From the IMG/VR virus record IMGVR_UViG_3300027766_000002: a stretch of 64,000 nucleotides of DNA. One strand, written 5' to 3'. The notes beneath the pieces are model-generated. The model saw only the letters and a list, made by a program, of their open reading frames with translations, had not been told where the DNA came from and made no database searches. This document shows, piece by piece, positions 10,822-61,378 of the stretch (position 1 is the first letter of the stretch; each line of letters starts with the position of its first letter). This stretch comes from a virus. Its lineage: Duplodnaviria > Heunggongvirae > Uroviricota > Caudoviricetes. A program made the translations under genes and the position numbers.

Positions 10822-11031
10822 ATGCAAGACGTTGATGAGCTTAAGCGAGCTGCCGCAACACTCTTTGTCAAAGCTATTCAGCAGAATCGTGGTGATTACG
10901 GCTCCACGAGCACTGTAGAGGCGGTAAAGCGAGGGGGTTCGACGATGACAATAAGCCACAACGGAACTATATCGGCCTACAAAGATGGTGTGCTGAGAGT
11001 GAGAATGGGTAGCATTGTCGGTGATCTGTAA
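10822..11031 (+). CDS. Hypothetical small protein
   Basis: 69 aa ORF. Confidence 0.3.
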   Translation: MQDVDELKRAAATLFVKAIQQNRGDYGSTSTVEAVKRGGSTMTISHNGTISAYKDGVLRVRMGSIVGDL

Positions 11032-11160
11032 TGATTCCATACATCTCAGAGTTTAGATCCACACCACGCACCTAACCTTGGTGCTCGTGACAAGATTTTT
11101 TTAGCTTTGCAGTATCAACGCCCCTCGAAGGGCTACATATAAAATACAAAGGAAAAACAC

Positions 11161-13767: not shown

Positions 13768-13793
13768 AGGCTCCGAACGGAGCCTTTTTATTA
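13768..13793 (+). terminator. Rho-independent terminator
   Basis: ggctccgaacggagcc hairpin followed by TTTTTA. Confidence 0.6.
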
Positions 13794-13809
13794 CCCTATA
13801 AAAATCGAA

Positions 13810-14859
13810 TTATGATTCGGTTTGCCGATCTTTTTTGGGATTAAATGATTGTAAGAAGCGCATAAGGAGAAAATCATCAGGGGCTTCAAAATCTACATAC
13901 CCATCAGGTTCAACAAACCCTTGCGCTATCCTTGGATGTCTCAGCGTTTCTTTTGGTAAAGCTTGAGTTGCAAACGGATTATGCAAGATGTATAGGCCAT
14001 CGGCCAGGTGCTCTACATAATCACTTTTTATTGTCTGGTTTACTCTAGGATATAGGGATCCATCAATGGGAGGCGTGAACGTAGAGTAAATGGTATGGGC
14101 AGAAGGGTTGTCAGCTAGCGCCCTCACCTTGCCCCATGTTGCAAGGCTGCTATAAATAACTGCACTTACGTCTGAGTATTCAGGAGTGCAGAAAAACCCC
14201 AAATCTATATGGGCATTTTCATTTTTTATCGCTGCATCAACATTATATGAAATCATGGTATTGGAACCCGATTCTATTGTTGCTTCTTCATCATGGTAAA
14301 GACCATATAAGGTCGCTAGTATGGGTCTGGCCGCGGCAAAATGAGCAAAAGGTCGGTCAAATGAGGCTATAGCGATTACGAATGGCCTATTTTTGCATTG
14401 GGGCAATTGTGAATAACGTGCTCGCAACTTCCTAACTTTAGCAATGAAGCTATTGCTTAATCTGATCGAGCTTTCTGAATTAAATCTATTGAAGTCTCTT
14501 GGCATATCTTCATGACTAAACCCGTAAACGCCTTGTCCTCCCTCAGCTGGAAGAGCTACAGTCGCCTCGATGCAAAACGCACTCTCACTTAAAACCACAA
14601 AATCAGGAGCATCATATGAGAAATCGTTAATTAGCCCTAACTCTTTTAAGTATGCATAAATGTATAATTCCCACAAACAAGGCTCAAATGTTGTTTGGAA
14701 CTCTTTCACGAATTTATTGTCTCTATCCTGAAATCCTTTCGCCCAACCATTTATGACATCTCTCTCAGGTTGGTATTGTTCCTTTTTCATCATAATGTAG
14801 ATAGGGTGTTGCTTTTCAAACGGAACAACATCTTCAAACAGATTTAGCATGAAGCTCAT
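13810..14859 (-). CDS. Hypothetical protein (AT-rich, minus-strand accessory gene)
   Basis: 349 aa ORF on the opposite strand to its neighbours. Low GC. No motif recognised. Confidence 0.5.
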   Translation of the reverse strand: MSFMLNLFEDVVPFEKQHPIYIMMKKEQYQPERDVINGWAKGFQDRDNKFVKEFQTTFEPCLWELYIYAYLKELGLINDFSYDAPDFVVLSESAFCIEATVALPAEGGQGVYGFSHEDMPRDFNRFNSESSIRLSNSFIAKVRKLRARYSQLPQCKNRPFVIAIASFDRPFAHFAAARPILATLYGLYHDEEATIESGSNTMISYNVDAAIKNENAHIDLGFFCTPEYSDVSAVIYSSLATWGKVRALADNPSAHTIYSTFTPPIDGSLYPRVNQTIKSDYVEHLADGLYILHNPFATQALPKETLRHPRIAQGFVEPDGYVDFEAPDDFLLMRFLQSFNPKKDRQTES

Positions 14860-14912
14860 GTTGTTAGTGACCTTAAAATCTATATTGGCGTTATTATTAA
14901 AATGCGAGAAAT

Positions 14913-14941
14913 AAAAAAGCCCCTTTAGAGGGGCTTATTTT
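14913..14941 (-). terminator. Rho-independent terminator (minus strand)
   Basis: aagcccctttagaggggctt hairpin with a T-run on the minus strand. Confidence 0.5.
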
Positions 14942-15471
14942 GCTTTGTGTGACATTCGAACGCCAGATTGACGACGCGGCGCAATAGGTCTATTGCGTTT
15001 AAGCACTCTATTCATCGGAACCATTTGCTGGGTCTGAGCATCATAAGCATACATCTGCCCGTCTGTCGGCATAATTTGAGAACCATCAATGCTTACACCA
15101 GGTGCTACGGCAACTTTAAGAGGAGGTCTGATCGTAGCCTCGATTGAAGCTGCCGCAGGGGTTTTCGTAATTCCAACCCGCACAACTAAAGTTTCACCTA
15201 CTTGAACTCTTGTGCGTTTCTGAGCGCGAAATTTTTTTTCTACCCATTTTGCTCGACCAGCAATGACTTGTCTTTGAGTGCCGACCTGTGCATTTCCAGC
15301 CTTTTCTTGGACTAAGCTGGCAGGGACGATCTTCCCCTCATGCCGAACGTACTCGCCCGAAGCAAGTTTACGCTCAGTGATTTTAGCGGAGGTTTTCTTC
15401 AATTTACGCGTCAGCGCAGCGTAAAGTTGTTCAGCTGAAGGGTTTTCAGTAGTATTTCGTGACGATTGCAT
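14935..15471 (-). CDS. Hypothetical basic protein
   Basis: 178 aa ORF on the minus strand, within the island. Confidence 0.4.
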   Translation of the reverse strand: MQSSRNTTENPSAEQLYAALTRKLKKTSAKITERKLASGEYVRHEGKIVPASLVQEKAGNAQVGTQRQVIAGRAKWVEKKFRAQKRTRVQVGETLVVRVGITKTPAAASIEATIRPPLKVAVAPGVSIDGSQIMPTDGQMYAYDAQTQQMVPMNRVLKRNRPIAPRRQSGVRMSHKAK

Positions 15472-16000
15472 AACCCCTCCTGTGACTGCCGAGTCTATTG
15501 AATTTAGACGTCATGGGGATAGACTTGAGTCTTATATCTCGGTCTACATCAAACCCCAGAGCCGTGTCGTAAATGCCTAGAAGCTCATCTCTGGCTGCTA
15601 TCCAGAAGTAAAGCCCAGCCTTGGTTACATTGTAATGGTCATAAACTGCACAAGCAACCCCGGTCACCAAATCCTTCTTAGCGCGAAAATCAATCTGGAC
15701 ATGGGCATAGTCATTTTCACCATCAGCAAGGTCAAATGCAACAATCCAAGCGCCACTTTCAGGGATGGCAAGTTGCTTGCCGCTGTATTGCGTTTCACCT
15801 AGAAAACTTTCCAGTACAGATTGCTTGTCAATTTTAGTGAACCCAACTGTATATCTGTGGCCCGTACTTAGCCTGCCCGCGAAAAATTCTCTGGCTACAG
15901 CAATTTGAGGCTCTTCTACATCACCAAACAAATAAGGATCAAGATCGTCCGGTTCAGGGACTTCCGTTTCATCCTCAAAATCATGCCACTCCCACTGCAC
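15446..16000 (-). CDS. Hypothetical acidic protein
   Basis: 184 aa ORF on the minus strand. Confidence 0.4.
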   Translation of the reverse strand: MQWEWHDFEDETEVPEPDDLDPYLFGDVEEPQIAVAREFFAGRLSTGHRYTVGFTKIDKQSVLESFLGETQYSGKQLAIPESGAWIVAFDLADGENDYAHVQIDFRAKKDLVTGVACAVYDHYNVTKAGLYFWIAARDELLGIYDTALGFDVDRDIRLKSIPMTSKFNRLGSHRRGYAIVTKYY

Positions 16001-16123
16001 AATTTACCTCGATTTCCTGAAATAATTCTTATTATTTAATCAAATCTTCTTTTTATACGCAATTCTTTCTAAAGGCGTACTCATCTTGGCAAAGGGGCAC
16101 AAATTTCAAAAAATGAAGCCTAA

Positions 16124-16156
16124 ATGATTCCATACTATGTAAGTATGGAATCATTG
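16124..16156. promoter_or_regulatory. Candidate recombinase core site: 13-14 bp perfect inverted repeats around a 5-7 bp spacer
   Basis: aatgattccatact atgta agtatggaatcatt lies immediately upstream of the tyrosine recombinase gene. Confidence 0.4.
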
Positions 16157-16169
16157 ATAAATCAGAGCT

Positions 16170-17330
16170 ATGCTGACCCTAAAAAAAGAGGTTTCGCATA
16201 TGCGTAGTGAATTTGATTTGGCCAAGGCAGCAGAAAACTGTTCCGCAGAGACGATCGCGTTTCTGCAGACCGTTATCGACTCGCCGCTTGATCAGCTGGA
16301 AGATTTCAGTGATTCCGACCCGGTTTTCAGAAAAGCATTCATGCTTTTCACCCGGCTATCTTTGCTGGTGACTCGCCGCCGTCCCGAGCTTGGCGTCCAC
16401 TGCATTTTGATACACGTTCTGCCTAAAATTGGCGATCTCCCTCTGTCAAAAATCACCAAGGTGGTCATTAACCGGCTGACAAACCCGCTGATCGTGGAAG
16501 GTAAAATTGTTCAGGGTAAACGTGTCTTTTCCGTAATGAAGCAGTTCCTCGCTTGGTGTGTGTTCCAGGGTTATCTAGAGAACTCACCAGTTGGCGACAT
16601 TCCACTGAACAAAGTTGGTGGCTCAAACCCTAAGCCCAGGGAGCGCACGCTAACAGACGCTGAAATATGGGTGTTCTGGCATGTATGGGATTACTTCGAA
16701 GTTTGCGAGGTGACGCGCTGGGCTGCCAGATTGACGCTTGCTGCTGCTCGACGCCCTGACGAGATCCTACGTGCAAAATCCGCTGAGTTTGACCTCACCA
16801 ATAACATATGGAACCAGGGTCGTCGTAACAAGTCGAATCGAGACCACCGGTTGCCCATCAGCCCGATTATGAAGCTCTGTATCGAACGGCTGCTTGCCGC
16901 GGGTGAGGGTAGCGAATGGCTATGCCCATCTAACAAGAAAGCAGGGCGGCCGATGTCAAAGGTGGCCATCAGCCAATCTTTGCGCCGAATCCTCGAAACA
17001 CCAGAAATGCTGGCGGTTGAGCCGTTCACTCCACGTGATCTACGCAGGACTGCAAGGAGCTGTCTGGCAAGTTTGGATGTACCGAGTGATGTATCAAGAA
17101 AGGTTTTAAATCAAAGCCTTGAAGGTATAGACCGTGTGTACGACAGGCACGACTATATAGATCAGATGCAAGAAGCACTGTGCAAATACTCAGTATTTTT
17201 GTTTAATATAGTCGAAAGCGAGGGGGTGGAGGATTTGAGCCACAAATACAAAGGCGACCGTCTGGATCTATCAAACAGTCGCCTTGGACTTGGGGTCGTT
17301 AACTTTGGATCGCAGCAAGTATATCCTTGA
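16170..17330 (+). CDS. Tyrosine recombinase / integrase-family protein (the start may be the internal ATG near 16199)
   Basis: C-terminal catalytic region with ARRPDE…FTPRDLRRTARS…RVYDRHDY (R-[H/R]xxR-Y). Confidence 0.6.
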   Translation: MLTLKKEVSHMRSEFDLAKAAENCSAETIAFLQTVIDSPLDQLEDFSDSDPVFRKAFMLFTRLSLLVTRRRPELGVHCILIHVLPKIGDLPLSKITKVVINRLTNPLIVEGKIVQGKRVFSVMKQFLAWCVFQGYLENSPVGDIPLNKVGGSNPKPRERTLTDAEIWVFWHVWDYFEVCEVTRWAARLTLAAARRPDEILRAKSAEFDLTNNIWNQGRRNKSNRDHRLPISPIMKLCIERLLAAGEGSEWLCPSNKKAGRPMSKVAISQSLRRILETPEMLAVEPFTPRDLRRTARSCLASLDVPSDVSRKVLNQSLEGIDRVYDRHDYIDQMQEALCKYSVFLFNIVESEGVEDLSHKYKGDRLDLSNSRLGLGVVNFGSQQVYP

Positions 17331-17679
17331 GCTTTTCATCTGTTAGAGTGCCGGATGATTTTGTTTTGTCTCGTAAGGCATTGATTATCTGGCGCTCTTC
17401 GTCACTTAGACCAGGGAGGTTTTTCTTTATGAATTGGTGGATGACCGGGTATCGTTCTTCCAAAACCAGCATCATGAAGCGAGTCTCATCTGTGCCTAAA
17501 GCTTCAGCAAGAAGGGATACTTTTTCCAATGGCATCGGCAGACGGCCGGTTTTAATATTGGAGAGATTGTTTGCGTTTTCATAGCCAATCTCAGATGCGA
17601 TCTGAGTCTGCGATTTTGGGGATGTCAAAATAAGCCCCTCAATAAATGCCGAAATACGGTTACCTTTTTTAGCGGCCAT
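17299..17679 (-). CDS. XRE-family helix-turn-helix transcriptional regulator (candidate repressor)
   Basis: HTH segment QTQIASEIGYENANNLSNIKTGRLPMPLEKVSLLAEALG. 126 aa. Convergent with, and overlapping, the recombinase 3' end. Confidence 0.6.
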   Translation of the reverse strand: MAAKKGNRISAFIEGLILTSPKSQTQIASEIGYENANNLSNIKTGRLPMPLEKVSLLAEALGTDETRFMMLVLEERYPVIHQFIKKNLPGLSDEERQIINALRDKTKSSGTLTDEKLKDILAAIQS

Positions 17680-17932
17680 AATAGTTTTTTCCTGCTTATT
17701 TATGCGAAATAATTATCAATTACGAGGTGTCATTTGCACCATTGCCCTGAGTGTATTACCGGCTAGAAAGTAAGTAAAGGGTTATCCCTCCTTAATGATA
17801 AGTAACCCACTAACTATTCATCAAAGGCCCATACACCAAGGCTTAATGAGAATTATTTTTGATATAAAACCTTTGATTTTTGTTACATAGCGTATAAGAT
17901 GCCGCCTCGATAAATAAGAACTGTCCCAAAGG

Positions 17933-18151
17933 TTGTTTATGGATGATTTAATCGCCTCCTTGAAGGCACTTGGCGTAGGCATGATTATCGCCGTTCCTTA
18001 CCATTTAGTTTCGGACATTATCCTTCGCTGCAACGGTATCGACATTGACTGCGGAGATGACGCTGTCGCATGTTTTCACATCAGCATTGCGCAAATGAAG
18101 TACACCCTTGCCTGCACTGGCGAAACCAGCCTGGTCACACGTTTTCTTTAA
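17933..18151 (+). CDS. Hypothetical small protein
   Basis: 72 aa ORF downstream of the AT-rich divergent control region. Confidence 0.3.
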   Translation: MFMDDLIASLKALGVGMIIAVPYHLVSDIILRCNGIDIDCGDDAVACFHISIAQMKYTLACTGETSLVTRFL

Positions 18152-18283
18152 ATCTCTTTAGCCTTTCTTAAAATCCAAACCTTGTTACTAGCCTGCGCGT
18201 TAATGGTCTCATTCATTGCGCGCAATGTTATTATCACCACTCAGAAAACAAATTGTTTTCATAAACAAGAGATGGAAAAGCAC

Positions 18284-21905: not shown

Positions 21906-22105
21906 GCAAAGGCTGCTTTGGTTCACTGATAGCAGCCTCTGAAACTAATCCCGTTTGCATGGCATGTTCCAGCAAGCGGGATTGCTTTGTTAAGGCACAA
22001 GAGACCGCTATCAAGATTTACGGGAAGTTCGCTGGCTTCCCAAACGACAAAATAAAAAAGACAAGTAAGGCAAAAGCACATGAAAGCATTAATGGTACGA
22101 ACTGA
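21902..22105 (+). CDS. Hypothetical small Cys-containing protein
   Basis: ATGA overlap with cobS. 67 aa. Confidence 0.3.
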   Translation: MSKGCFGSLIAASETNPVCMACSSKRDCFVKAQETAIKIYGKFAGFPNDKIKKTSKAKAHESINGTN

Positions 22106-24437
22106 CTTCTCCCTGGGTGAGTCGTCTTTGAAGGCAGAGCGCGCCGTAGAGAAAGCCCGCGAAATGGGTTACTCGTCGGTGATCTCCGCTGACAGCATGA
22201 ATCTGGCATCCGTAATCCCCTTGCAGATGGCGGCTGGTGACGATGTTGCGGTCATTTGTGGTGTGAAGCTTAACCTGGTTGACGATCCTACATACGAGCA
22301 CCGCGCTCGACTTGCGAAGGAGTCTAAAGGATGTATGGAATCATTAACGCGCGCGCGTAACTACAGCTTCACGGCGCTAATCAAGAACGAGCAGGGCTAT
22401 GTCGATCTCTGCGAACTGATGACGCTGGCAAACACACGCGAGCAGTTTTATCACGTTCCCCGTCTTGAGCTGGCGCAGCTGCTGGCTACGTTCGCCAAAG
22501 GCAACATCATCCTGCTGACCTCGGACATGGGAAGCGTATTCCAGCGCCCGGACTTCGCGAAGATTATCGCCCAGCTGGTTCACGCTGGCGGCCGTGAGAA
22601 CTTTTACTGCGCCGTTTATCCGATTGCTACCCCCCTCTATGACCAGCTGAATAGCAAATCGCTCAAGGTGGCCAGTGCTCTTAAGATCGAGCCGGTGGCG
22701 TTCTACCCTGCTTACTACGAGGCTCCCACTGACGCTGACATCAAAGACATCGCGCATATGGTGCTGAACAACATCAAAATAGACCAGCTGCACCGTATGC
22801 GAATCCCGTATCAACGTGACAATGGCGTTAATGATCGCCGCCACTTACTCCAGCTATTGAAGGAGTTTGCGGTGCGGATGGGTGTCAACGTCACGCCAGC
22901 AATGGTCTCAACAACTCAGGACGCGATCATTGATGCGTGTACATGGCGCTGGCACCCGCTGGAGCCCGCTTTACCAACCATGGCAGATGATGAGCCAGCC
23001 ACATTGCGTAAACTCGCTGTAGAGGGGCTGAGGAAGCGTCTTAGCACCAAAGAGTTCGGCTATGCGCCACCAGCCACAATGCACCGTGATTATGTTGAGC
23101 GTCTGAAGTACGAACTTGATGTTTTAACCCGCCTTGGCTTCTGCGGCTACTTCCTCATGGTTCACGACCTGATGAATTACGCTCGCGGCGCCGGGATTCC
23201 TGTTGGGCCTGGTCGCGGTTCATCCGCTGGCTCTCTTGTCGCCTGGTGCGTGGGGATCACAAACGTAGACCCTATTCGCCATGGATTGCTGTTCGAACGT
23301 TTCATTAACCCTGAACGTCTCGACTTGCCCGATGCTGATCTGGACTTTAGCCAGGCACGTCGCCACGAGGTCATTGAGTACCTGGGTGAGCGTTACGGGG
23401 AGGATTACGTCGCTGGCATTCCCAACTTCACATACCTCGGTGCAGCTTCAGCACTGCGCGACACCGCACGTATCTTTGGCGTGGATTCAGCGGATATGGC
23501 GGTATCGAAAGACCTGCGCTTTGTCGATGACGATTCACTGTCACTCGAAGAGATGCGCGAAGAGCTTTCCAGCCTGGACAAATACGCAGCCAAATACCCG
23601 GACGCATTTAACGCGGCCACTAAACTGCAAAGTCTCATGCGCGGATTCGGCCGCCACGCAGCAGGCATGATCGTAGCCGGTGTGAAGCTGACGGAGCGCA
23701 CACCGGTAGAGCGACGCGGGGATGCGCGTGTAATCGCTTTTGACAAGCGTTACTGCGAATCCATGGGATTGATTAAGTTGGACGTGCTCGGCCTCGCTAC
23801 GCTCGATTTGCTGGCTTATGCGCAGGAATACGTGAAAGAAGCCACGGGCAGCGTGATTGATCTCGATGCAATTCCACTAACTGACAAAAAGGTTCTTGAT
23901 GGCTTTGCCGGTGGCCACACCCAGGGCGTGTTCCAGCTTGAATCAGGTTCGATGCGTAAGCTGCTAAAGGATCTGGGCGGCGGCATTGATCCGATGAGCT
24001 TTGAAACAGTTGTCGCCACGACAGCATTATTCCGACCTGGCCCGATCGAATCTGGAATGTTGGACAGCTACGTTTCGGTGGCCAAAGGCTTCAAAGAGGC
24101 TGATTCCATCCACCAGGTGCTCGATGAGCTTACCTCTGAGACCAATGGGGTAATTCTCTATCAGGAACAAACCATGAAGGCCACGCAGCTGCTGGCCGGC
24201 TTCACGCTCGCGGAAGCTGATGGCGTCCGTAAAGCGATCGGTAAAAAAGACATGGAGAAGATGAAGAAGGTCGGTAACCAGTTTATCGAGCAAGCCCAGG
24301 CTGGCTGGATAGAGGTGAAGTTGGAAGACGGAACCAATCGCCAGTTCCACCGCGCGGAGCACTTCAAATGTGCCGATGGCAAGCTGCGAACCATCGAAGA
24401 AGCAATGCACGATGGCGCCGAAGTTCTGGGTATCTAA
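22080..24437 (+). CDS. dnaE: DNA polymerase III alpha subunit (DnaE), N-terminal about 785 aa (PHP, palm, thumb, most of the fingers)
   Basis: GFCGYFLMVHDLMNYARGAGIPVGPGRGSSAGSLVAW…LLFERFINPERLDLPDADLDF matches the E. coli DnaE catalytic core. It ends at an in-frame TAA, 24 codons before the next in-frame dnaE ORF. Confidence 0.85.
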   Translation: MKALMVRTDFSLGESSLKAERAVEKAREMGYSSVISADSMNLASVIPLQMAAGDDVAVICGVKLNLVDDPTYEHRARLAKESKGCMESLTRARNYSFTALIKNEQGYVDLCELMTLANTREQFYHVPRLELAQLLATFAKGNIILLTSDMGSVFQRPDFAKIIAQLVHAGGRENFYCAVYPIATPLYDQLNSKSLKVASALKIEPVAFYPAYYEAPTDADIKDIAHMVLNNIKIDQLHRMRIPYQRDNGVNDRRHLLQLLKEFAVRMGVNVTPAMVSTTQDAIIDACTWRWHPLEPALPTMADDEPATLRKLAVEGLRKRLSTKEFGYAPPATMHRDYVERLKYELDVLTRLGFCGYFLMVHDLMNYARGAGIPVGPGRGSSAGSLVAWCVGITNVDPIRHGLLFERFINPERLDLPDADLDFSQARRHEVIEYLGERYGEDYVAGIPNFTYLGAASALRDTARIFGVDSADMAVSKDLRFVDDDSLSLEEMREELSSLDKYAAKYPDAFNAATKLQSLMRGFGRHAAGMIVAGVKLTERTPVERRGDARVIAFDKRYCESMGLIKLDVLGLATLDLLAYAQEYVKEATGSVIDLDAIPLTDKKVLDGFAGGHTQGVFQLESGSMRKLLKDLGGGIDPMSFETVVATTALFRPGPIESGMLDSYVSVAKGFKEADSIHQVLDELTSETNGVILYQEQTMKATQLLAGFTLAEADGVRKAIGKKDMEKMKKVGNQFIEQAQAGWIEVKLEDGTNRQFHRAEHFKCADGKLRTIEEAMHDGAEVLGI

Positions 24438-24509: not shown

Positions 24510-25679
24510 ATGAAAGTTTTAGAGACGATTTCCACGAAGCCCGGACTAAGTGATAGCAAAGCAAAAGAGATCTGGGAAGCGTTTGAAAAAAACGGGGCGT
24601 ACCAGTTCAACAAATCTCACTCAGTGGCTTACTCGCTGATTAGCTATCAGTCGATGTTCATGAAAACGCACTACCCTGCCCAATTCTTCGCAGCAGCGCT
24701 GACTATTTTGGGTGATGACAAGCATCAGGGGCTGGTCAAGGACGCGCTGAGCTTTGGCATTCGCATCTTGCCACCAGATGTAAACATCTCAACCAACCGC
24801 ATTGAGATCCGTCAGATGGAAGATGGTACGCAAGTGCTGTATGCGCCCTTCTCAGCTGTTAAAGGATGCTCAGAGAATGGATGCCAGGCAATCATGCGCG
24901 CCCGGGCGAAAGTGGGAGGCCATTTCACAGACATCATGCAGTTTGAAGAGGCGGTTGAGAAGCGCGCCTGCAACAGCCGTGTACGTGACTCTCTCGATCG
25001 TGTCGGTGCATTTGCCAGCATCATTCCCGGCAGCGTACCAGCTACCTCAGAAGAACGACGCCGCGACCAGGCGGAGCTGATGGGTAATCTGGTGATCGAT
25101 GCGGTAAAAGCGACACGCCAGTTTGAAATGAACCCGAAACGCCAGGCTGAAGTAAACGTGCTGATGACGAATATGGCCGCTGAAATGGGGCTGGGTGATG
25201 AGCTTATCCGTCCGAGCATCGGCATCAAACCACGCTTGATGATCATCCTCGACAACGCCAACGGTAACGATGGCAAAACCGGATACTTCATGGAGAACGG
25301 TTATGACGACTTCAAGGCGAAGTTGCTGGTTGCCGGCGATCTTAAAATGGGCGATTTGTACATTACCGGCGTTTGCAAGAAGGTGAAGGACAAAGAAAAG
25401 GACTACACCAAAGACGAGTTAGGCCAGTTTAACGAGTTCATCAAAGCAGAGGTAGCTTTGGTACGACCAACGTACATTCTTACTTGCGGCGCCAAGTCCA
25501 CCAGCCTGTTTAACAACAAATCGAAGCCATCAGATCTTGTTGGCCGCAAAGAGTATCTGCCGGAGTTGGATGTCACGGTATTCTATGGCTTTAATCCCAA
25601 CATTCTCCACTTCCGCCCAGAAGAAGGCGAAAAGCTGGAGTTGATCCTCGCTGACGTTGCCGAGGCAGTAAATTCGTGA
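24510..25679 (+). CDS. dnaE: DNA polymerase III alpha subunit (DnaE), C-terminal about 389 aa, separately initiated
   Basis: …FEKNGAYQFNKSHSVAYSLISYQSMFMKTHYPAQFFAAAL matches E. coli DnaE around residue 870. It has its own AAGAGG Shine-Dalgarno 5 nt before the ATG. It is in the same frame as the upstream ORF. Confidence 0.8.
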   Translation: MKVLETISTKPGLSDSKAKEIWEAFEKNGAYQFNKSHSVAYSLISYQSMFMKTHYPAQFFAAALTILGDDKHQGLVKDALSFGIRILPPDVNISTNRIEIRQMEDGTQVLYAPFSAVKGCSENGCQAIMRARAKVGGHFTDIMQFEEAVEKRACNSRVRDSLDRVGAFASIIPGSVPATSEERRRDQAELMGNLVIDAVKATRQFEMNPKRQAEVNVLMTNMAAEMGLGDELIRPSIGIKPRLMIILDNANGNDGKTGYFMENGYDDFKAKLLVAGDLKMGDLYITGVCKKVKDKEKDYTKDELGQFNEFIKAEVALVRPTYILTCGAKSTSLFNNKSKPSDLVGRKEYLPELDVTVFYGFNPNILHFRPEEGEKLELILADVAEAVNS

Positions 25680-35711: not shown

Positions 35712-35952
35712 TTACATACCGCAGTCAATGGCATTTGCCGAAGTACGCAACTCTACATACCGCAGTCAAGAAATCACATATTCTGGTTGGTTCAGGGTGG
35801 TTTTCATTGACTGCGGTATGCATATTACGTATCGCAGTCAAGATGGGATGTGAGACGCATATCTCAGTGAAGATTGCATACCGCAGTCAATATCACATAC
35901 CGCAGCCAATAAACCGCATATCGCAGTCAATAAACTGCATACCTCAGTCAAT
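35712..35952. repeat. Iteron array: about 9 copies of a 14-19 bp CATACCGCAGTCAA(T) repeat, one of them inverted
   Basis: Direct repeats seen at 35714, 35754, 35808 (inverted), 35828, 35878, 35897, 35916, 35930 and 35942. They lie immediately downstream of the repA stop, since repA is on the minus strand. Confidence 0.7.
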
Positions 35953-36967
35953 TTTCGGGTTTGGATTTAGCGAGGGCTTCTGCCAGTTTGACGGGATCTA
36001 TACCTGCAGTTTTCAAAGCCTTAATGACTTCGTCGTAGTTCTCTTCTGACGGCGGCTGCTCTTCAACCTTTTGTTTAGGCAGCTTAGAAGTCTGGATCAG
36101 CTTCGGATTGCGGTAGTGAACGACGAAGAAGGTGGAGTTTCCGCGTTTGGTTTCGGTGTATTCGAGGTACCCGATTTCTTTCAGTTGCTCCATGGCCTTT
36201 CTAACAGTGTGATTTTGCGTGTAAACGCTTGAAGTCAGGTTAAGCCGGTCACGAAGGCGCTTCATCGAAATGGGAGCGTGGTTCTGGGGTAGACTTTCAA
36301 TGAAGGTGTACAGAGCCTGGGCTGATTCTTTACGTGGCAGTGCATCAATGGCTTTAAGTCGAAGCAGCACACGCCTGTCCATGTCATAGAGTTCGAAGAG
36401 CTTAGGCTCAGCTTCTATTTCAACAACGTTTTCAACGACATCGTATGAGGCTGATTTTACCAGGTGTGTCACCCACCCTTTCGTATCGTTCTGGAACTTA
36501 AGCGTTACGGATGCCAATTTAAACAGGGAGTTACTGATACGATCTCGCATCTTCTGGTTGGAACGTCGGCTATCGAACCCACACATCTTAACGAACTCGA
36601 CAAACGTGAGCTTAAGCGCACTTCCCTGCACCCCATGCTCAGCCATTGAGCGAACGATCCCCAGCCATACCTTGAAATCAGTGTCCATATCCAAACGTGA
36701 CCCTGTAATTTTCACGTCGTTGTAGCCTTCGCTCTTGGCTATGGACAACTGGACAAGTTCTTCGGTCGCATCTGTGATATTTTTACGGTTGGTCTTGCTC
36801 TTACTCGTTGATTTTAGGGTAGGAACAAACAGGCCGAGACGCATGAGAGGAACCGGCTGAACAGTGCTGGAGCTGTTAATATCCAGTGAAACGATCTCAC
36901 CTGTCGATTTGTTTGTTTCTTCCAAATTCATCGGTAAGGTTTTGGATTTCTTGACCATTTTATGCAC
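35948..36967 (-). CDS. repA: Replication initiator RepA (Rep_3/iteron-plasmid type)
   Basis: 339 aa on the minus strand, flanked on both sides by iterons. Winged-helix-like initiator sequence features. Confidence 0.55.
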   Translation of the reverse strand: MHKMVKKSKTLPMNLEETNKSTGEIVSLDINSSSTVQPVPLMRLGLFVPTLKSTSKSKTNRKNITDATEELVQLSIAKSEGYNDVKITGSRLDMDTDFKVWLGIVRSMAEHGVQGSALKLTFVEFVKMCGFDSRRSNQKMRDRISNSLFKLASVTLKFQNDTKGWVTHLVKSASYDVVENVVEIEAEPKLFELYDMDRRVLLRLKAIDALPRKESAQALYTFIESLPQNHAPISMKRLRDRLNLTSSVYTQNHTVRKAMEQLKEIGYLEYTETKRGNSTFFVVHYRNPKLIQTSKLPKQKVEEQPPSEENYDEVIKALKTAGIDPVKLAEALAKSKPEN

Positions 36968-36994
36968 CAGCAGTTGTTCACATGCCGTAAGTGT

Positions 36995-37102
36995 AACTGC
37001 ATATCTCAGTCAAGGTAAATACATACCGCAGTTAATGGATTTGCGTACCGCAGTTGGTAGGTTCACATGTCGCAGTCATGATTCTGCACACTACAGTCAA
37101 GA
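36995..37102. repeat. Second iteron array upstream of repA (about 5 degenerate copies of TACCGCAGT)
   Basis: actgcatatctcagtcaagg, acataccgcagttaatgg, gtaccgcagttgg, catgtcgcagtcatg and cactacagtcaag. Confidence 0.6.
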
Positions 37103-37300
37103 TCGATCCTGTCTCAGCCCTGTGGTGGCGTGGGTTTGCGGCGATCGGGGATCTCTTTTGGATCTCCATTGGGATCACTTTAGGATCAATTTATTGGATC
37201 GACACTGTGGAAATTGGGGATAAGCAAAACAGGCAGTTGCAGCCTAACGCCAAATTTATGCGTTACAGTCGCAAATATTTCCACCAGCAAGAGTAGACCA

Positions 37301-37945
37301 ATGGATCTTAAACGAACACGCTGGGTTCGCCGTCTCGAAGATGGCACCTATACCATTGAGCCAGACAGCAAACTTAACTCCCAGAAAGAACTATGCGACC
37401 TCTGTGGAATTGCATCAAAATGCCCAATTAACGAGGCACGGCATAAGTTCAAGGCTACAGGAGCTGACTTCCACTTAAATTCTTGTCTGCGGTATGTGCC
37501 GCTTATCGCGTTTCGTAAACCGATCATCGGATTGAATGAGCCTTACTTCAACACGCTCCGAAGCGGAGTTACCTGGGTTAGCCGTGTAGAGCCAGGCAAA
37601 ATCGTGTGTCTGGTAGACGCAGCGAACGGAGAGCGAATCAGGTTCGCAAAAGTGGATCGAGTATGTTCGGGGCCCTACGAAGAAATGCTTCGAAAACACA
37701 GCCGATTCAACCACCTTTGCATGGGTGGTGAAAGCGTCGAAAAGGTTTCTGAAGTAATCCGTAAATCCTATGGGCATTTTCTGAAGCCTGATAGTCAGCT
37801 GACGGCCATTTATCTGCGGAGCATCAGCCGTGAACATGACGTTGAATATCACACGGATCATGAACTTGAGTTAGAAGATCCTCGGGCAAAAGCACCAGTG
37901 ATAGATATGGCCTCGCTTCGCAGAAAGCACGAGAAAACGATTTGA
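37301..37945 (+). CDS. Hypothetical protein
   Basis: Internal ATG of the listed ORF 37214..37945. 214 aa. Confidence 0.4.
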   Translation: MDLKRTRWVRRLEDGTYTIEPDSKLNSQKELCDLCGIASKCPINEARHKFKATGADFHLNSCLRYVPLIAFRKPIIGLNEPYFNTLRSGVTWVSRVEPGKIVCLVDAANGERIRFAKVDRVCSGPYEEMLRKHSRFNHLCMGGESVEKVSEVIRKSYGHFLKPDSQLTAIYLRSISREHDVEYHTDHELELEDPRAKAPVIDMASLRRKHEKTI

Positions 37946-38018
37946 ACCTATAAGATGGGTGAACGCACCAGAGCTTACGTTCACCCTCTTAGAGAAGCGT
38001 ACAGCGGGCTTGTGCTAT

Positions 38019-38387
38019 CTACCGCTCAATCAAATCGCCATCCCCATTCATCCACATGCCATCAGCCAAATAAACCCACTCATCTGGATCATCGGTGACT
38101 CGCAGATCTTCATAGAGCGAAGTCAGGTCGCTACCAACAATCATTTGTTTGTATTTGTTGTAATTTCTCCGAACGTCGTAATAAGTTTCAACATCGTAAT
38201 CCTGTTCCCTCAGCTCATCATCTGAAGAGACATTTAGAGTTTTCTTTAGGCCTACTATGTTGAAGATCCATTTTAAGCCGTTTTTGACATAGTATGCCGA
38301 CGTATAGGCGTCCTCGTCTGGCACACGTTCATAACCAAGTTTTAATGCGATCTGAATTTGTTCAGTAACTGAAAGCACAATTGCCAT
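38019..38387 (-). CDS. Hypothetical acidic protein (minus strand)
   Basis: 122 aa ORF. Confidence 0.4.
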   Translation of the reverse strand: MAIVLSVTEQIQIALKLGYERVPDEDAYTSAYYVKNGLKWIFNIVGLKKTLNVSSDDELREQDYDVETYYDVRRNYNKYKQMIVGSDLTSLYEDLRVTDDPDEWVYLADGMWMNGDGDLIER

Positions 38388-38607
38388 TATGATCCCTATT
38401 ATGCTGTGTAAAACATCATCTTAGAGCGCCTTTGCTATGGAGTTAAGGAATTTAAAACTTGTCCCTCCAGATAGTAGGTAGTTAGCTACTTATAAATATT
38501 GCATAATAGCCAGCCTGCGAACCAACCCAATAGCCTATAGCTCTGAATTGATGGCCTATTCAGTGTTGGTAACATTGCGTTGAATTTATAACAAGCTGGA
38601 AGAACAC

Positions 38608-39693
38608 ATGACTATACCGTATGGCGTGATCTCTGATCCCCACTACCACAAATGGAATACTTTCGCGGTTTCTGACGCCAACGGGCTTAATTCCCGCCTG
38701 GCCATTCTGCTTGAATCGACAAAGGAAGCTGCGATTGCCATCAAAGAGGCTGGGGCAAAGCATCTGTTTGTTGCAGGTGATACGTTCCATGTACGCGGCA
38801 CTATAACGCCATCTGTACTGCACTACGTGACGGAAACCTACAAGTGGATCATCAATGAGCTTGGCCTTGAAGTGGTCATGCTGGCCGGCAACCACGACCT
38901 CGAAACCAACGATTCTGTCTACAGCGCTAACGCAGCTGCCTCACTGCAGTCGATCGGGGTGCATATCGTTTGTGGGCAGCAGCCGTTCAGCATTGAAGTT
39001 GGTGATGTGAATGTTCATTTCATCAGCTGGCGTAACTCCCACGCCGAGCTTTTGAGTGATATGAAGGCGTTGCGAAATCGTCTTGAGGGCGACAACCACG
39101 ACATCATCATTCATACCTCAGTCAATAAAGCGATCCCGACCATGCCCGATGTGGGCATCGATGCGCAGGAGCTGAAGGACATTGGCTTCCGCCTGGTTTT
39201 GTCTGGTCATTACCATAACCACAAAGAAGTCCTGCCCGGAGTCGTCAGTGTAGGTGCGTTAACGCACCAGAATTGGGGTGATGTTGGAACTTTGGCCGGC
39301 TACATGATCGTACAGCCAGATGGCAGTTTTACCCAGCATGAAACCTCCGCTCCAAAGTTCGTCAACCTCGAAGAGGGCGTTGATGACAGCGAAGTACGCG
39401 GCAATTACGTTCGTTTCTACGCGACTATTGAAGCCGACGAAGAAGGCGTAAAGATAAAAAACACCCTCAACTCCATGGGCGCCAAAGGCGTCGTGTGCAA
39501 CTTCGTTCGTAAATCCTCAATGATGACCGGCTCCGCCAGCACTTCTGCTACGTCAAAGATAGATAGCCTTGGAGAGTCAGTGAGCGCTTACTGTCAGATT
39601 ATGCACGACACTGACGGCGGTTTTGATGTGAAGGCATTGGGCGCGCTTTGCAGCGACATCCTGATTGAAGCGGAAACCGGAACTTCAGAATGA
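38608..39693 (+). CDS. sbcD: SbcD/Mre11-like nuclease (calcineurin-like phosphoesterase)
   Basis: Phosphoesterase motifs DPHYH, GDTFH, GNHD and GHYH. Preceded by GGAAGAACACATG. Confidence 0.75.
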   Translation: MTIPYGVISDPHYHKWNTFAVSDANGLNSRLAILLESTKEAAIAIKEAGAKHLFVAGDTFHVRGTITPSVLHYVTETYKWIINELGLEVVMLAGNHDLETNDSVYSANAAASLQSIGVHIVCGQQPFSIEVGDVNVHFISWRNSHAELLSDMKALRNRLEGDNHDIIIHTSVNKAIPTMPDVGIDAQELKDIGFRLVLSGHYHNHKEVLPGVVSVGALTHQNWGDVGTLAGYMIVQPDGSFTQHETSAPKFVNLEEGVDDSEVRGNYVRFYATIEADEEGVKIKNTLNSMGAKGVVCNFVRKSSMMTGSASTSATSKIDSLGESVSAYCQIMHDTDGGFDVKALGALCSDILIEAETGTSE

Positions 39694-39926
39694 TCACCGG
39701 CAAATACCAGTGGGCTGTAAATATCCTGAACAACGGAGGGACGGTCACACTCCATCGTTTTACATACCGCAGTGAACGAGTGCGCTACAAGCTCAACCGT
39801 CTTTATCGTGACGGAGTCTTAGATCGCGCTTTGTACAAAACTCACCTGGAGTTTCGTCTCAAGAAAGATCAGCCAAAGCTGACTAACCTGGCATCCAAAA
39901 TAAAACATACAGAGAAAAGCACATGA
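39690..39926 (+). CDS. Hypothetical protein
   Basis: ATGA overlaps on both sides. Contains an isolated iteron copy (39760-39776). Confidence 0.4.
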   Translation: MITGKYQWAVNILNNGGTVTLHRFTYRSERVRYKLNRLYRDGVLDRALYKTHLEFRLKKDQPKLTNLASKIKHTEKST

Positions 39927-59340: not shown

Positions 59341-60070
59341 GACCACCAGCACCCTCGATCGCCAGGCATTGATGGAGACGTTTCTAAAGGGTGTTCCAAC
59401 CGAAGAGCTTCTCAACTACGACATTAACAGTTGGTATGCGCACAAAGCGCAAGAGCAAGCCGAGGAAATGCGCGATGAAATGGACTCACCCGCTGGTGGA
59501 CTTTTGAAATTCCTCAGTAGTGGGCCGATGTCAGGTATGGCAGCAATGATGTTCGCCAGGGAGTTTAAGGACACACCGGCCACTAACTATTATGAGCTGG
59601 TGTATCAATTGCCTGAATTGGGGGTTTTCACGGTCACTATCCAACGTAATGATGGAGAGACGCCGGCTCTTCAATTGGCCGCAGCTAAAGACCGTATTGC
59701 CATGCTCGAAGAATCTCAAGCACAGGTGATTCAGGCGCGTGATTTGTACAAGCAGAGCTGGCAGCAGTCATCTCTACAATCGATGTCACGATCATTCCGC
59801 GAGGCAGTAAGAGCTGCGCGCAAGCTGTGGCTGGATGAGAATGATCCAAAGGACGGCACTGACTGCGTCACTCCATTCGACCAGTTTCTATACACGGAAG
59901 TTGTTTCTGGTGAGGGTGTCGATTTGCCAGACCTCTTCGAGCTGATGGAGTGGGCGAAATACCCAGCCTATGGGCGCGATCTCAACTCAGTGGCCAAGGG
60001 TAAGATGTCACGTCTTATTCTGGCCGCAACCGGTTTGGGGGAGGCGTCACTTACAGTAAGCGATCGGTAA
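59330..60070 (+). CDS. Hypothetical protein
   Basis: Its ATG overlaps the upstream TGA. 246 aa. Confidence 0.45.
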   Translation: MQHETTSTLDRQALMETFLKGVPTEELLNYDINSWYAHKAQEQAEEMRDEMDSPAGGLLKFLSSGPMSGMAAMMFAREFKDTPATNYYELVYQLPELGVFTVTIQRNDGETPALQLAAAKDRIAMLEESQAQVIQARDLYKQSWQQSSLQSMSRSFREAVRAARKLWLDENDPKDGTDCVTPFDQFLYTEVVSGEGVDLPDLFELMEWAKYPAYGRDLNSVAKGKMSRLILAATGLGEASLTVSDR

Positions 60071-61378
60071 TTCTTTCAGACATGTGGTGTAGCGCGGGGA
60101 AAGCATCTCGCGCTTCATCTGCCATTGGTTATCAACCCCCTGCCCTGCGAACCAAACCTTTCCCAACCCTGTTTTATTAATCTTGTCGATGACACCCATC
60201 AGCTCATCTGCTTTGGCGCGCGGCTGATGTTCGCTAAACATATCGAGCTGAGCGACACCGCTCTGGAAGAAGTCGCCGAGCATTATCCCTGCGCGCGCGT
60301 AGCGATAGCCGTCACGCCAGATACCTTTCAGACACTGCATGGCAAACGCTACAATGTCACGCGTGTCGGCGGTCGGATATTCGCAGGTAATCGAAGCACT
60401 GTTGCCATATTGAAGCTCATTGGCGTAGCGGCTTGTTGCTATGAACACGGTGACAAGCCGGCAACGTGATTTTTGCTCTCTCAACTTCTCCGACGCGCGT
60501 ACGGCATAAGTGCAAACGGCATGTTCCATGTCCTCCAGCTTTTCAACGCGTTGCCCAAAGGATTTGGAGGTGACGATCTGCTGCTTTGGTGGCGGCTGCT
60601 CTTCAAGTGGGATGCACGATTCACCATTCAGCTCACGCACGGTGCGTTCAAGCACTACACCAAAATTTTTGCGGATCATTGTCGTGTTGGCCTGTGCCAG
60701 CTGAAGTGCTGTTTCAATACCCATCTGGTTTAGCCTCTTAGTTAATCGGCCCCCAACACCCCAGACATCACTTACACCGACCAGAGCCATCAGTTTGCGC
60801 TGTCGCACCGGGCTGGATAAGTCCAGCACCCCGTTTGTTTTTGACCATTTTTTGGCAGCGTGATTTGCCAGTTTTGCCAAAGTTTTACTTTGCGCAAACC
60901 CTACACCTACGGTGAGAAATGTCTCCTGTTTTATTCGATTTCGAAGCTGGTGGCCGAACTCTTCAAGGGGCATGTAACCAGAAATTCCCGATACATCGAG
61001 GAAACTTTCGTCAATGCTGTAAATTTCTTGGCCTGGCGCCATCTCCCCCATGATAGTCATCATTCGCTTGCTCATGTCAGCATAGAGGGCATAATTACTT
61101 GAAAAGACCACTACGCCCTTCTCTTCAAAGAAACGCTCGTTTTTGAATAGTGGATCGCCCATTTTTATGCCTAATTTCTTTGCTTCAGCAGATCTAGCAA
61201 CGATGCAGCCGTCGTTGTTAGAACAGACGATGACTGGTTTTCCTCGCAGATCAGGTCGGAAAATTGTCTCACAAGAGGCGTAAAATGAATTAGCATCGAC
61301 GAGGGCAAACATCTGGCTACTCTCTAAAATTACTGTACGCATATACAGTATAATAGATCGGCCTTTTCGATTAGCCAA
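60047..61378 (-). CDS. umuC: Y-family translesion DNA polymerase UmuC
   Basis: MFALVDANSFYASCETIFRPDLRGKPVIVCSNNDGCIVARSAEAKKLGIKMGDP is near-identical to the E. coli UmuC N-terminus. Confidence 0.85.
   Translation of the reverse strand: MANRKGRSIILYMRTVILESSQMFALVDANSFYASCETIFRPDLRGKPVIVCSNNDGCIVARSAEAKKLGIKMGDPLFKNERFFEEKGVVVFSSNYALYADMSKRMMTIMGEMAPGQEIYSIDESFLDVSGISGYMPLEEFGHQLRNRIKQETFLTVGVGFAQSKTLAKLANHAAKKWSKTNGVLDLSSPVRQRKLMALVGVSDVWGVGGRLTKRLNQMGIETALQLAQANTTMIRKNFGVVLERTVRELNGESCIPLEEQPPPKQQIVTSKSFGQRVEKLEDMEHAVCTYAVRASEKLREQKSRCRLVTVFIATSRYANELQYGNSASITCEYPTADTRDIVAFAMQCLKGIWRDGYRYARAGIMLGDFFQSGVAQLDMFSEHQPRAKADELMGVIDKINKTGLGKVWFAGQGVDNQWQMKREMLSPRYTTCLKELPIAYCK

Follow-up and report, generated by a model that had tools for sequence, protein, structure and literature searches.

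The DNA analysed here is a stretch of 64,000 nucleotides (nt) from a virus of the class Caudoviricetes (IMG/VR record IMGVR_UViG_3300027766_000002), hereafter called the window. It belongs to a phage-plasmid of the SSU5/pHCM2/pMT1 type, whose closest record is the plasmid pCP102 of a soil Enterobacter (109.9 kb; recombinase 97% identical). The window encodes a tyrosine recombinase (Int) and contains, just upstream of its gene (int), a 31-bp site made up of two perfectly inverted 12-bp arms around a 7-bp asymmetric spacer. Gene and site probably constitute a self-contained plasmid multimer-resolution module served by a single recombinase, in the manner of Cre/loxP or XerS/difSL. This reading draws on: (i) the anatomy of the site; (ii) its strict conservation; (iii) its exclusive linkage to the recombinase gene; (iv) the fold and motifs of the protein; and (v) a plasmid-only distribution. 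Resolution systems in which a site of about 31 bp adjoins the gene of a single recombinase, both forming one module, are already known (PMC5357621).

Anatomy of the Site

A gap of 200 nt separates a minus-strand open reading frame (ORF) starting at 16000 from the divergent, plus-strand recombinase ORF. Within it lies the inverted repeat aatgattccatact-atgta-agtatggaatcatt (i.e., AATGATTCCATACT, ATGTA and AGTATGGAATCATT), with arms complementary at 14 of 14 positions and a spacer of 5 nt. A first-pass annotation of this DNA, made from the letters alone, had noticed the repeat, placed it about 40 nt upstream of the recombinase and compared its architecture with that of lox and dif sites. Its coordinates for the repeat, 16124-16156, were one base too high (16123-16155 is correct). 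The distance was right (44 nt to the ATG at 16200), and the comparison has been borne out, since the repeat has the features of a simple tyrosine-recombinase core site tied to the adjacent recombinase. Among the perfect short-range inverted repeats of the window it is the longest, while in 30 first-order Markov shuffles the longest repeat had arms of 11 bp at most. Folded as single-stranded DNA, it reaches -13.1 kcal/mol (z-score = -7.3).

Comparison with relatives redraws the predicted functional unit as 12-7-12, that is, as 31 bp at 16124-16154. The invariant part comprises 12 nt per arm only, and the two extra complementary bases that each arm has in the window are unconserved elsewhere. 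As for the spacer, 14 different AT-rich sequences are found among relatives, all of them 7 nt long and none of them capable of being palindromic. In the nearest relatives it reads TTATATA, the reverse complement of TATATAA, and so differs by one base from the window spacer in inverted orientation. The site thus has the form of a simple module: two perfect inverted arms around a short asymmetric spacer.

Other roles for the palindrome were considered. As a terminator hairpin it was rejected: the flanking genes diverge, the loop varies in sequence at a fixed length, and no T-run follows the stem. A replication origin or terminus was also discarded, as GC skew tracks gene orientation without a switch at the palindrome. 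No known RNA family reached its gathering score, with only chance-level matches in the region 10.8-18.4 kb. Any likeness between the arms and Ter, Fur, DnaA, IHF or XerD sites is presumably partial at best.

Linkage of the Site to the Recombinase Gene

The int region of the window is 64-65% identical to that of Klebsiella phage pJN2-26 and Escherichia phage Cyrano. The former carries ATGATTCCATAC-TTGGTAG-GTATGGAATCAT about 100 nt upstream of int, within a spacer region that is otherwise unalignable. A pattern scan recovered 99 viral contigs with both 12-mers, at a constant spacing of 7 nt. In a collection of one genome per species (185,579 species representatives), the exact site occurred in 7 contigs, all plasmid-sized, from Yersinia pestis, Kluyvera, Chimaeribacter and Buttiauxella. 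When all loci containing the 5' end of int plus enough upstream sequence were counted (n = 178), the palindrome accompanied int in every one of them: 177 times within 260 nt and once at 2 kb, behind an insertion. Hence, close relatives that keep the recombinase without the site, which the first-pass annotation had named as evidence against the pairing, do not occur among these loci.

The site is also inherited, and lost, with the gene. In a 106-kb relative (L186), a clean deletion of 2.2 kb (L150 4818-7017 in the comparison) took out the palindrome, int and the neighboring helix-turn-helix (HTH) gene together; its flanks are 99% identical to those of an int-bearing relative, so the deletion is recent. 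Within the subclade of the window (six members), the 24 arm bases are identical though synonymous divergence (dS) in int amounts to 0.3-1.8.

Two groups of non-phage plasmids carry the module: (i) Chimaeribacter-type plasmids, with Int 75% identical to that of the window; and (ii) megaplasmids of Rahnella, Pantoea, Erwinia and Ewingella, with Int 47-50% identical. In both, int lies amid metabolic genes, with no HTH neighbor, no cobT and no phage genes, and the 12-7-12 palindrome is retained 46-150 nt upstream of int, the only gene shared. In the clade with 47-50% identity, the arms read (A/G)TGACTCCAGAC, with two positions changed, in most cases matched in both arms (the right arm is GTCTGGAGTCA(T/C), and the left arm matches it in most cases); the spacers are of a similar kind (CTATTAA, TTATTAG, TTAATAG). 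When a protein diverges and both arms of its neighboring site change in matched fashion, this is what a recombinase-site pair would be expected to show. By this comparison, in which the non-phage plasmids are decisive, the palindrome is assigned to the recombinase and not to the HTH gene.

The Recombinase

The likely start of int is the ATG at 16200, which is preceded at 8 nt by the ribosome-binding site AGAGG; homologs align from residue 1. The protein matches the Pfam family Phage_integrase (PF00589) with 33.0 bits (cutoff, 27.1) and a PHROG integrase family with E = 3e-39. In its AlphaFold (AF2) model (predicted local distance difference test score, 90.3; predicted template modeling score, 0.83), helical residues 1-58 are followed by the core-binding and catalytic domains. 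The best Foldseek matches (probability 1.0; template modeling score, ~0.5-0.58) are lambda Int 75-356 on core DNA, Tn1549 Int, XerH, XerA and IntI. Residues R185, K211, R282 and Y314 are conserved across 47-100% identity, and the second arginine belongs to the motif R279-x-x-R282. Tyr314 stands nine residues after position 305, which we take to be the spacing of lambda Int, XerD and Cre. The gene is under strong purifying selection, with a ratio of nonsynonymous to synonymous divergence (dN/dS) of 0.02-0.07.

The arm-binding domain PF13356 is absent from the family down to 47% identity, whereas all the next relatives, i.e., P4-type integrases with at most 33% identity, have it. The absence of this domain fits a simple site without arm-type sites, and the lineage is best described, from this distribution, as one of integrases from which the arm-binding domain was lost, a loss to be expected where the enzyme acts on a simple site. 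By descent, it does not belong to the Cre or Xer families: its nearest sequence relatives are the P4-type integrases, and a phmmer search against PDB chains, Cre included, gave no match at E <= 1. The recombinase is predicted to work like Cre/Xer-type systems yet stands outside their protein families.

Expression of the Recombinase Gene

A -10-like hexamer (TATGCT) follows the right arm, and a TAnnnT hexamer starts 12-16 nt after that arm in 55 of 59 distinct leaders, the megaplasmid clade included. A -35 element for it would lie within the right arm, so that bound recombinase should block its own promoter; hence, Int is probably autoregulated through this arm. A scan for sigma-70 promoters in the 15.9-18.3 kb region found sites no more frequently than in shuffled sequences.

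In the main phage-plasmid clades (Int 54-65% identical to that of the window), 43 of 44 distinct int leaders are of about 98 nt and contain TTGATC-17 nt-TAATAT followed by a strong LexA box (CTGT-N8-ACAG). An example is CTGTATATAAACACAG in pJN2-26 (L001 4824-4839), and the equivalent position is occupied in L006, L008, L020, L038, L101 and L194. Judging from these boxes, int is probably SOS-inducible in the main clades. The subclade of the window has an int leader of 44 nt without a LexA box, and the sole LexA box of the window, at 61331-61350, precedes a umuC-like gene (60047-61378, minus strand). The link between recombinase and induction implied by the lysogeny switch of the first-pass annotation thus gains some substance from the predicted boxes, in the relatives and not in the window.

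A Probable Multimer-Resolution Module

The mechanism that we propose for the module has four parts: binding of the site, catalysis, autoregulation and, as its role in the cell, the resolution of multimers. One recombinase monomer would bind each 12-bp arm, and two sites would then synapse as a tetramer. Strands would be exchanged at the edges of the 7-bp spacer, whose asymmetry would set the direction of the site. Acting as a self-contained module on a plasmid-borne prophage, gene and site would return to the monomeric state those plasmid multimers that homologous recombination produces, which allows partition to work, and the recombinase bound to the right arm would shut off its own promoter.

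The distribution of the module fits such a role. Among 5426 complete Escherichia coli genomes, the Cyrano version of int is present in 254 copies, none of them chromosomal and all of them on plasmids; the scan for the exact site in the species representatives gave no chromosomal contig. Counted by genome, 252 E. coli genomes have it off the chromosome in every case. Homologs of Int are found on 962 PLSDB plasmids, and their carriers include phage-plasmids of Yersinia pestis (pMT1 type), Salmonella (pHCM2/SSU5 type), Klebsiella and E. coli, together with megaplasmids of 300-700 kb of Pantoea and Rahnella. Of the two functions put forward in the first-pass annotation, dimer resolution and integration, the former is the one that agrees with this plasmid-only distribution.

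Several points weigh against multimer resolution. No accessory sequences imposing resolution selectivity were found next to the core. Searches of the searchable literature returned no mention of the site or of the role of the enzyme, and nothing relevant on a recombinase or on resolution in SSU5. The relative L186 survives as a 106-kb contig without the module. In the protein, the first catalytic His is replaced by Arg279 in every aligned sequence of the family, and codon 305 (17112-17114), the His/Trp position, encodes Gln in all 11 loci of the subclade and His in 109 relatives. Hence, to judge from its residues, the catalytic competence of the window's protein is not assured, despite strong selection. 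In the main SSU5/pKpn/pMT1-type phage-plasmid clades, int lies behind a LexA box in 43 of 44 distinct leaders, a type of control that one would not readily expect of a housekeeping resolvase. The isolated half-sites, which lie as far as 6 kb away and in part inside dnaE, suggest that the protein may have DNA-binding roles beyond recombination. Finally, the mosaic break at the left arm, described below, could also come from selection keeping the site while the adjacent cargo turns over; with 31 identical bases, RecA recombination is close to its lower limit.

Table 1. Features of the window around the predicted recombination site.
Feature	Position	Strand	Remarks
Isolated half-site ATGATTCCATACATC	11031..11045	+	Intergenic; points toward the palindrome; conserved in close relatives
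Hypervariable cargo slot (three minus-strand ORFs)	13793..16122	-	From glutaredoxin terminator to left arm; five closest relatives all differ
PD-T7-5-like anti-phage defense gene	13810-14859	-	PADLOC E = 1.4e-100
Left recombinase-binding arm (putative) ATGATTCCATAC	16124..16135	+	Invariant in 99 viral and 7 genome contigs (pattern scan)
Asymmetric spacer TATGTAA	16136..16142	+	Presumed strand-exchange (overlap) region; always 7 nt among relatives
Right recombinase-binding arm (putative) GTATGGAATCAT	16143..16154	+	Perfect complement of left arm
-10-like hexamer TATGCT (candidate int promoter)	16169..16174	+	14 nt after right arm; -35 position within right arm
Tyrosine recombinase gene (int), 376 amino acids	16200..17330	+	Pfam PF00589; core-binding and catalytic domains, no arm-binding domain
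Convergent HTH (XRE-like) regulator gene, 126 amino acids	17299..17679	-	3' end overlaps int stop (17330) by 32 nt
Intergenic region, HTH gene to small ORF/cobT operon	17680..17938	.	Candidate divergent promoters; 90-94% conserved in subclade
Isolated half-site ATGATTCCATACATC	22330..22344	-	Antisense, inside dnaE 5' region; points toward the palindrome

Isolated Half-Sites and Possible Roles Beyond Recombination

The 15-mer ATGATTCCATACATC, which consists of the recombinase arm plus ATC, occurs in the 64 kb of the window at the two positions of Table 1 and nowhere else. Relatives carry two to four half-sites, none farther than about 6 kb from the palindrome; in the 104 kb of Cyrano there are three perfect ones (L101 8581, 9593 and 17786). 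About five homologous positions can be distinguished: (i) the start codon of an ORF, small and hydrophobic, that follows the ligase region; (ii) about 200 nt upstream of a tRNA cluster; (iii) the equivalent of 11031; (iv) antisense in int, as a copy with one mismatch that is absent in the window; and (v) antisense in dnaE, about 250 nt from its start. The half-site in dnaE falls on the same codons (..CMESL..) in every relative compared that has that part of the gene, a few of them ending in ACC instead of ATC; synonymous positions are frozen within the motif, while adjacent codons drift. All of the 108 distinct half-sites point toward the palindrome and none away from it, a count of modest statistical weight given that it derives from about five independent positions. 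The non-phage plasmids with the same module have no half-sites.

Because the first 12 bases equal the recombinase arm, binding of the half-sites by Int monomers would be the simplest assumption. Their role could be repression, a directional block to transcription or replication, or the shielding of the resolution site from DNA motors. A bolder and still tentative possibility is that the recombinase of SSU5-type phage-plasmids has acquired a second, non-recombination job. In that case, monomers would bind isolated 15-bp half-sites over the surrounding 12 kb, all pointing to the resolution site. Transcription, replication forks or SMC/FtsK-type motors on their way to that site could meet them as directional roadblocks, as unloading sites or as repressor sites. 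Such a system would be similar to XerD/XDS or Tus/Ter but located on a plasmid, with a recombinase under SOS control in most lineages, and the same site might also be the entry point that keeps the defense slot turning over.

Taken to its extreme, DNA binding would be the main function of the site: a protein with a recombinase fold would act as regulator or roadblock, as a dimer on the palindrome controlling divergent promoters and as a monomer on half-sites, with little or no strand exchange in the subclade. We regard this as unlikely. The palindrome does lie between divergent genes, with the -10-like hexamer close to its right arm in nearly all leaders. The half-sites, with 15 frozen bases, mark the start of a gene, precede tRNA genes and lie antisense in int and dnaE. 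Position 305 has changed from His to Gln in the subclade, and the first catalytic His to Arg family-wide. There is, moreover, a precedent in XerD, which binds dif-like sites independently of recombination (PMC11840125). But Tyr314, both Arg and the Lys are kept throughout the family, and the 12-7-12 geometry, with an asymmetric spacer of fixed length, matches a need of strand exchange and exceeds what a dimeric repressor needs. Besides, the non-phage plasmids have gene and palindrome without half-sites, so the core module works without them, and the reassortment of flanks at the site suggests real crossovers.

Three further ideas on the half-sites were considered. As terminal inverted repeats of an 11.3-kb element they were rejected, since the right copy lies inside the continuous, conserved reading frame of dnaE. 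A promoter function was not adopted: their orientation fits the downstream genes on the left and is antisense in int and dnaE, with no -35 element at a workable distance. The relative L186, a natural int knockout that still has half-sites, is uninformative due to its recent deletion.

The Hypervariable Slot

To the left of the site, the five closest relatives differ from the window and from one another, whereas on the right side they are about 85-94% identical. Homology resumes at 16100-16124 and ends at the outer edge of the left arm. Across all loci, 44 left-flank clusters stand against 18 right-flank clusters, with one strict four-gamete quartet. Among the E. coli plasmid alignments to Cyrano that were listed, more than half begin exactly at the arm. 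These patterns point to the palindrome as a recombination junction in evolution, and crossovers at the site would be their natural explanation. The far border of the slot coincides with the end of the glutaredoxin terminator, at 13792. Neither this slot nor the isolated half-sites had been noticed in the first-pass annotation. Apart from the defense gene, the slot contains two ORFs without a family match. In Cyrano, the gene occupying the slot is transcribed 723-fold above the prophage background (PMC9928086).

The same data could be explained by cargo capture, in an integron- or IMEX-like fashion, if circular DNA bearing the site were inserted at the palindrome. Such a capture point would account for the excess of left-flank clusters, for the divergence of all five closest relatives from the arm outward, and for the contents of the slot (a defense gene here, a very highly expressed gene in Cyrano). 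It is very unlikely: neither a second nor a hybrid site was found at the other border of the slot, and no cassette-borne sites were seen.

Integration into the Host Chromosome as an Alternative

The site might, alternatively, be an attP-like core through which the phage-plasmid integrates into and excises from the host chromosome. The annotation of the protein as an integrase, the P4-type integrases as its closest sequence relatives and the SOS box on int in most relatives, as for an induction-linked function, would be in agreement with it. Nevertheless, integration, the other function put forward in the first-pass annotation, is unsupported and highly improbable. Neither of the hallmarks of lambda- and P4-type integrases, an N-terminal arm-type DNA-binding domain and chromosomal integration, was found, the latter among the 254 copies in complete E. 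coli genomes. The exact site, which that annotation had suggested looking for at prophage junctions in host genomes, occurred only in plasmid-size contigs of the species representatives, although a scan of exact arms would miss a degenerate attB. As for possible targets, a tRNA or tmRNA gene was rejected, none being present across the 64 kb, and no tRNA-like sequence was found in the window either. Resolution is a better fit for arms of perfect symmetry and for a module that is also present on megaplasmids.

In Cyrano, pJN2-26 and similar relatives, a tRNA cluster separates the ligase region from the glutaredoxin gene and has one half-site just upstream of it.

The HTH Gene and the Adjacent Candidate Control Region

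Downstream of int, the first-pass annotation had described a convergent XRE-family gene overlapping the recombinase by about 30 nt at the 3' ends; the overlap is of 32 nt. As for the family, RefSeq names the pCP102 homolog XRE family and PHROG transcriptional-regulator families match with E = 1e-7 to 1e-5, while Pfam support is weak, with HTH_19 (15.2 bits; E = 0.02) and HTH_3 (13.6 bits; E = 0.07) both below the cutoff. It is plausible, on these matches, that the 126-amino-acid protein is a transcriptional regulator. In every phage-plasmid relative the gene accompanies int, in convergent orientation throughout and with an overlap of 6-32 nt; it is not beside int in non-phage plasmids and is, thus, dispensable for the pairing of site and recombinase. 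Its Cyrano homolog, CYRAN_45, is transcribed 10-fold above the prophage background in lysogens and has been called a putative repressor (PMC9928086).

The intergenic region upstream of this gene, which the first-pass annotation had delimited as 17680-17935 and seen as a divergent control region, does exist and is conserved in close relatives (Table 1). A promoter search within it returned weak consensus matches only, no more than in shuffled sequences, and it contains no copies of the site or of the half-site. The window also holds 10 copies of another palindrome, AAACAANTTGTTT, versus 0.25 expected (at 2962, 18246, 32495, 46827, 49859, 57054, 57771, 58373, 62421 and 62472), typically just upstream of plus-strand genes; the copy at 18246, for instance, precedes cobT. 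This palindrome is a candidate operator, or promoter-associated site, of a dimeric regulator and a better candidate for the HTH operator than the palindrome at int. The dispensability of the HTH gene, the lack of the site in this intergenic region and the better operator candidate weaken the lysogeny or plasmid-state switch put forward in the first-pass annotation.

That the latter could be the operator of the convergent XRE-like repressor, unrelated to the recombinase, is scarcely credible. In its favor, the palindrome is perfect and stands in a promoter region close to an HTH gene for which lysogens of a relative show transcription (PMC9928086). But plasmids without the HTH gene keep it next to int, the upstream region of the HTH gene has no copy of it, and 12 frozen bases per arm with centers 19 bp apart are atypical for a small HTH dimer.

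Other Features of the Element

The window, pJN2-26 and Cyrano have a common gene order: glutaredoxin, variable gene, int, convergent small gene, small ORF, cobT, cobS and dnaE. The dnaE gene of the window is split into two ORFs, 22080-24437 (785 amino acids) and 24510-25679 (389 amino acids), the second of which follows a 72-nt gap and has its own ribosome-binding site; pJN2-26 and Cyrano encode a single protein of about 1170 amino acids.

Three kinds of repeated sequences were also observed: (i) a 17-nt iteron-like repeat, TTACATACCGCAGTCAA, with nine copies in 35712-39776, six of them within 240 nt; (ii) dispersed 18-nt palindromes of the form TAGGTAGTTAGCTACCTA, with five copies (10429, 31354, 38475, 43136 and 53553); and (iii) a translation-start context, AAAGGAAAA(A/G)CACATG, before many plus-strand genes, with at least nine copies (4428, 11138, 20653, 27912 and 30190, among others). 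The iteron region, together with the RepA region, lies about 20 kb from the recombination site and is probably the plasmid replication origin and control region.

Comparison With Known Systems

That the recombinase of SSU5-like phage-plasmids has its own lox/dif-like site of 31 bp, with a wide distribution and a natural specificity variant, is well supported by the comparative data, and resolution is the most likely role of the pair. If this assignment is true, a major group of phage-plasmids has its multimer-resolution system identified, and a cargo slot with defense genes has one border exactly located. It would also provide a compact 31-bp site and a 376-amino-acid enzyme, unrelated in sequence to Cre and with a natural second specificity (ATGACTCCAGAC arms), which could be tested as orthogonal tools for genome engineering.

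The module resembles Cre/loxP of P1 in that a tyrosine recombinase of a plasmid-prophage has, by its gene, a simple site with two inverted arms of 12-13 bp around a short asymmetric spacer, without an arm-binding domain or accessory sites. The loxP spacer is of 8 nt, versus 7 nt here. The two proteins have no detectable sequence similarity, and structural matches to Cre are weak (E ~0.03-0.2); unlike Cre, the window protein descends from P4/lambda-type integrases, and isolated half-sites are not a feature of Cre/lox. The role of Cre/loxP in P1 is, precisely, multimer resolution (PMC7969092).

XerS/difSL and XerH/difH, too, are single modules in which one recombinase acts on a near-palindromic site of some 31 bp next to its own gene (PMC5357621). 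The former carries out multimer resolution for streptococcal chromosomes, and XerH is among the structural matches of the window protein. But those systems are chromosomal and FtsK-dependent, and difSL has an 11-bp central region, whereas the arms of the window are perfectly symmetric and lie on a plasmid.

TnpI, at Tn4430's internal resolution site (IRS), binds inverted core motifs and extra single copies that regulate the reaction (PMC2847244). These accessory motifs adjoin the core on one side; in the window, no extra motifs immediately adjoin the core, and the half-sites are found 2-6 kb from it, to either side and with mirrored orientations, some of them in coding sequence. Furthermore, they are absent from the non-phage plasmids carrying the same module.

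Integrases of the lambda and P4 types are the closest to the window protein, both by sequence (P4-type, at most 33%) and by structure (lambda Int 75-356 on the COC' core). The overlap region of lambda att is of 7 bp, like the spacer of the window. Unlike them, the system described here has no N-terminal arm-binding domain, no arm-type sites and no chromosomal integration, and the arms of its core are symmetric.

Finally, XerD at the XDS sites of the Bacillus terminus, where it takes part in SMC unloading, offers a case of dispersed single binding sites around a resolution site that are used without recombination (PMC11840125). The resemblance concerns the layout only: here the distances are of kilobases, the replicon is a plasmid of 110 kb, and a strict inward polarity sets the present system apart. 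In any case, half-sites that all point inward and are frozen even in the codons of dnaE may show a recombinase doing something other than recombining.

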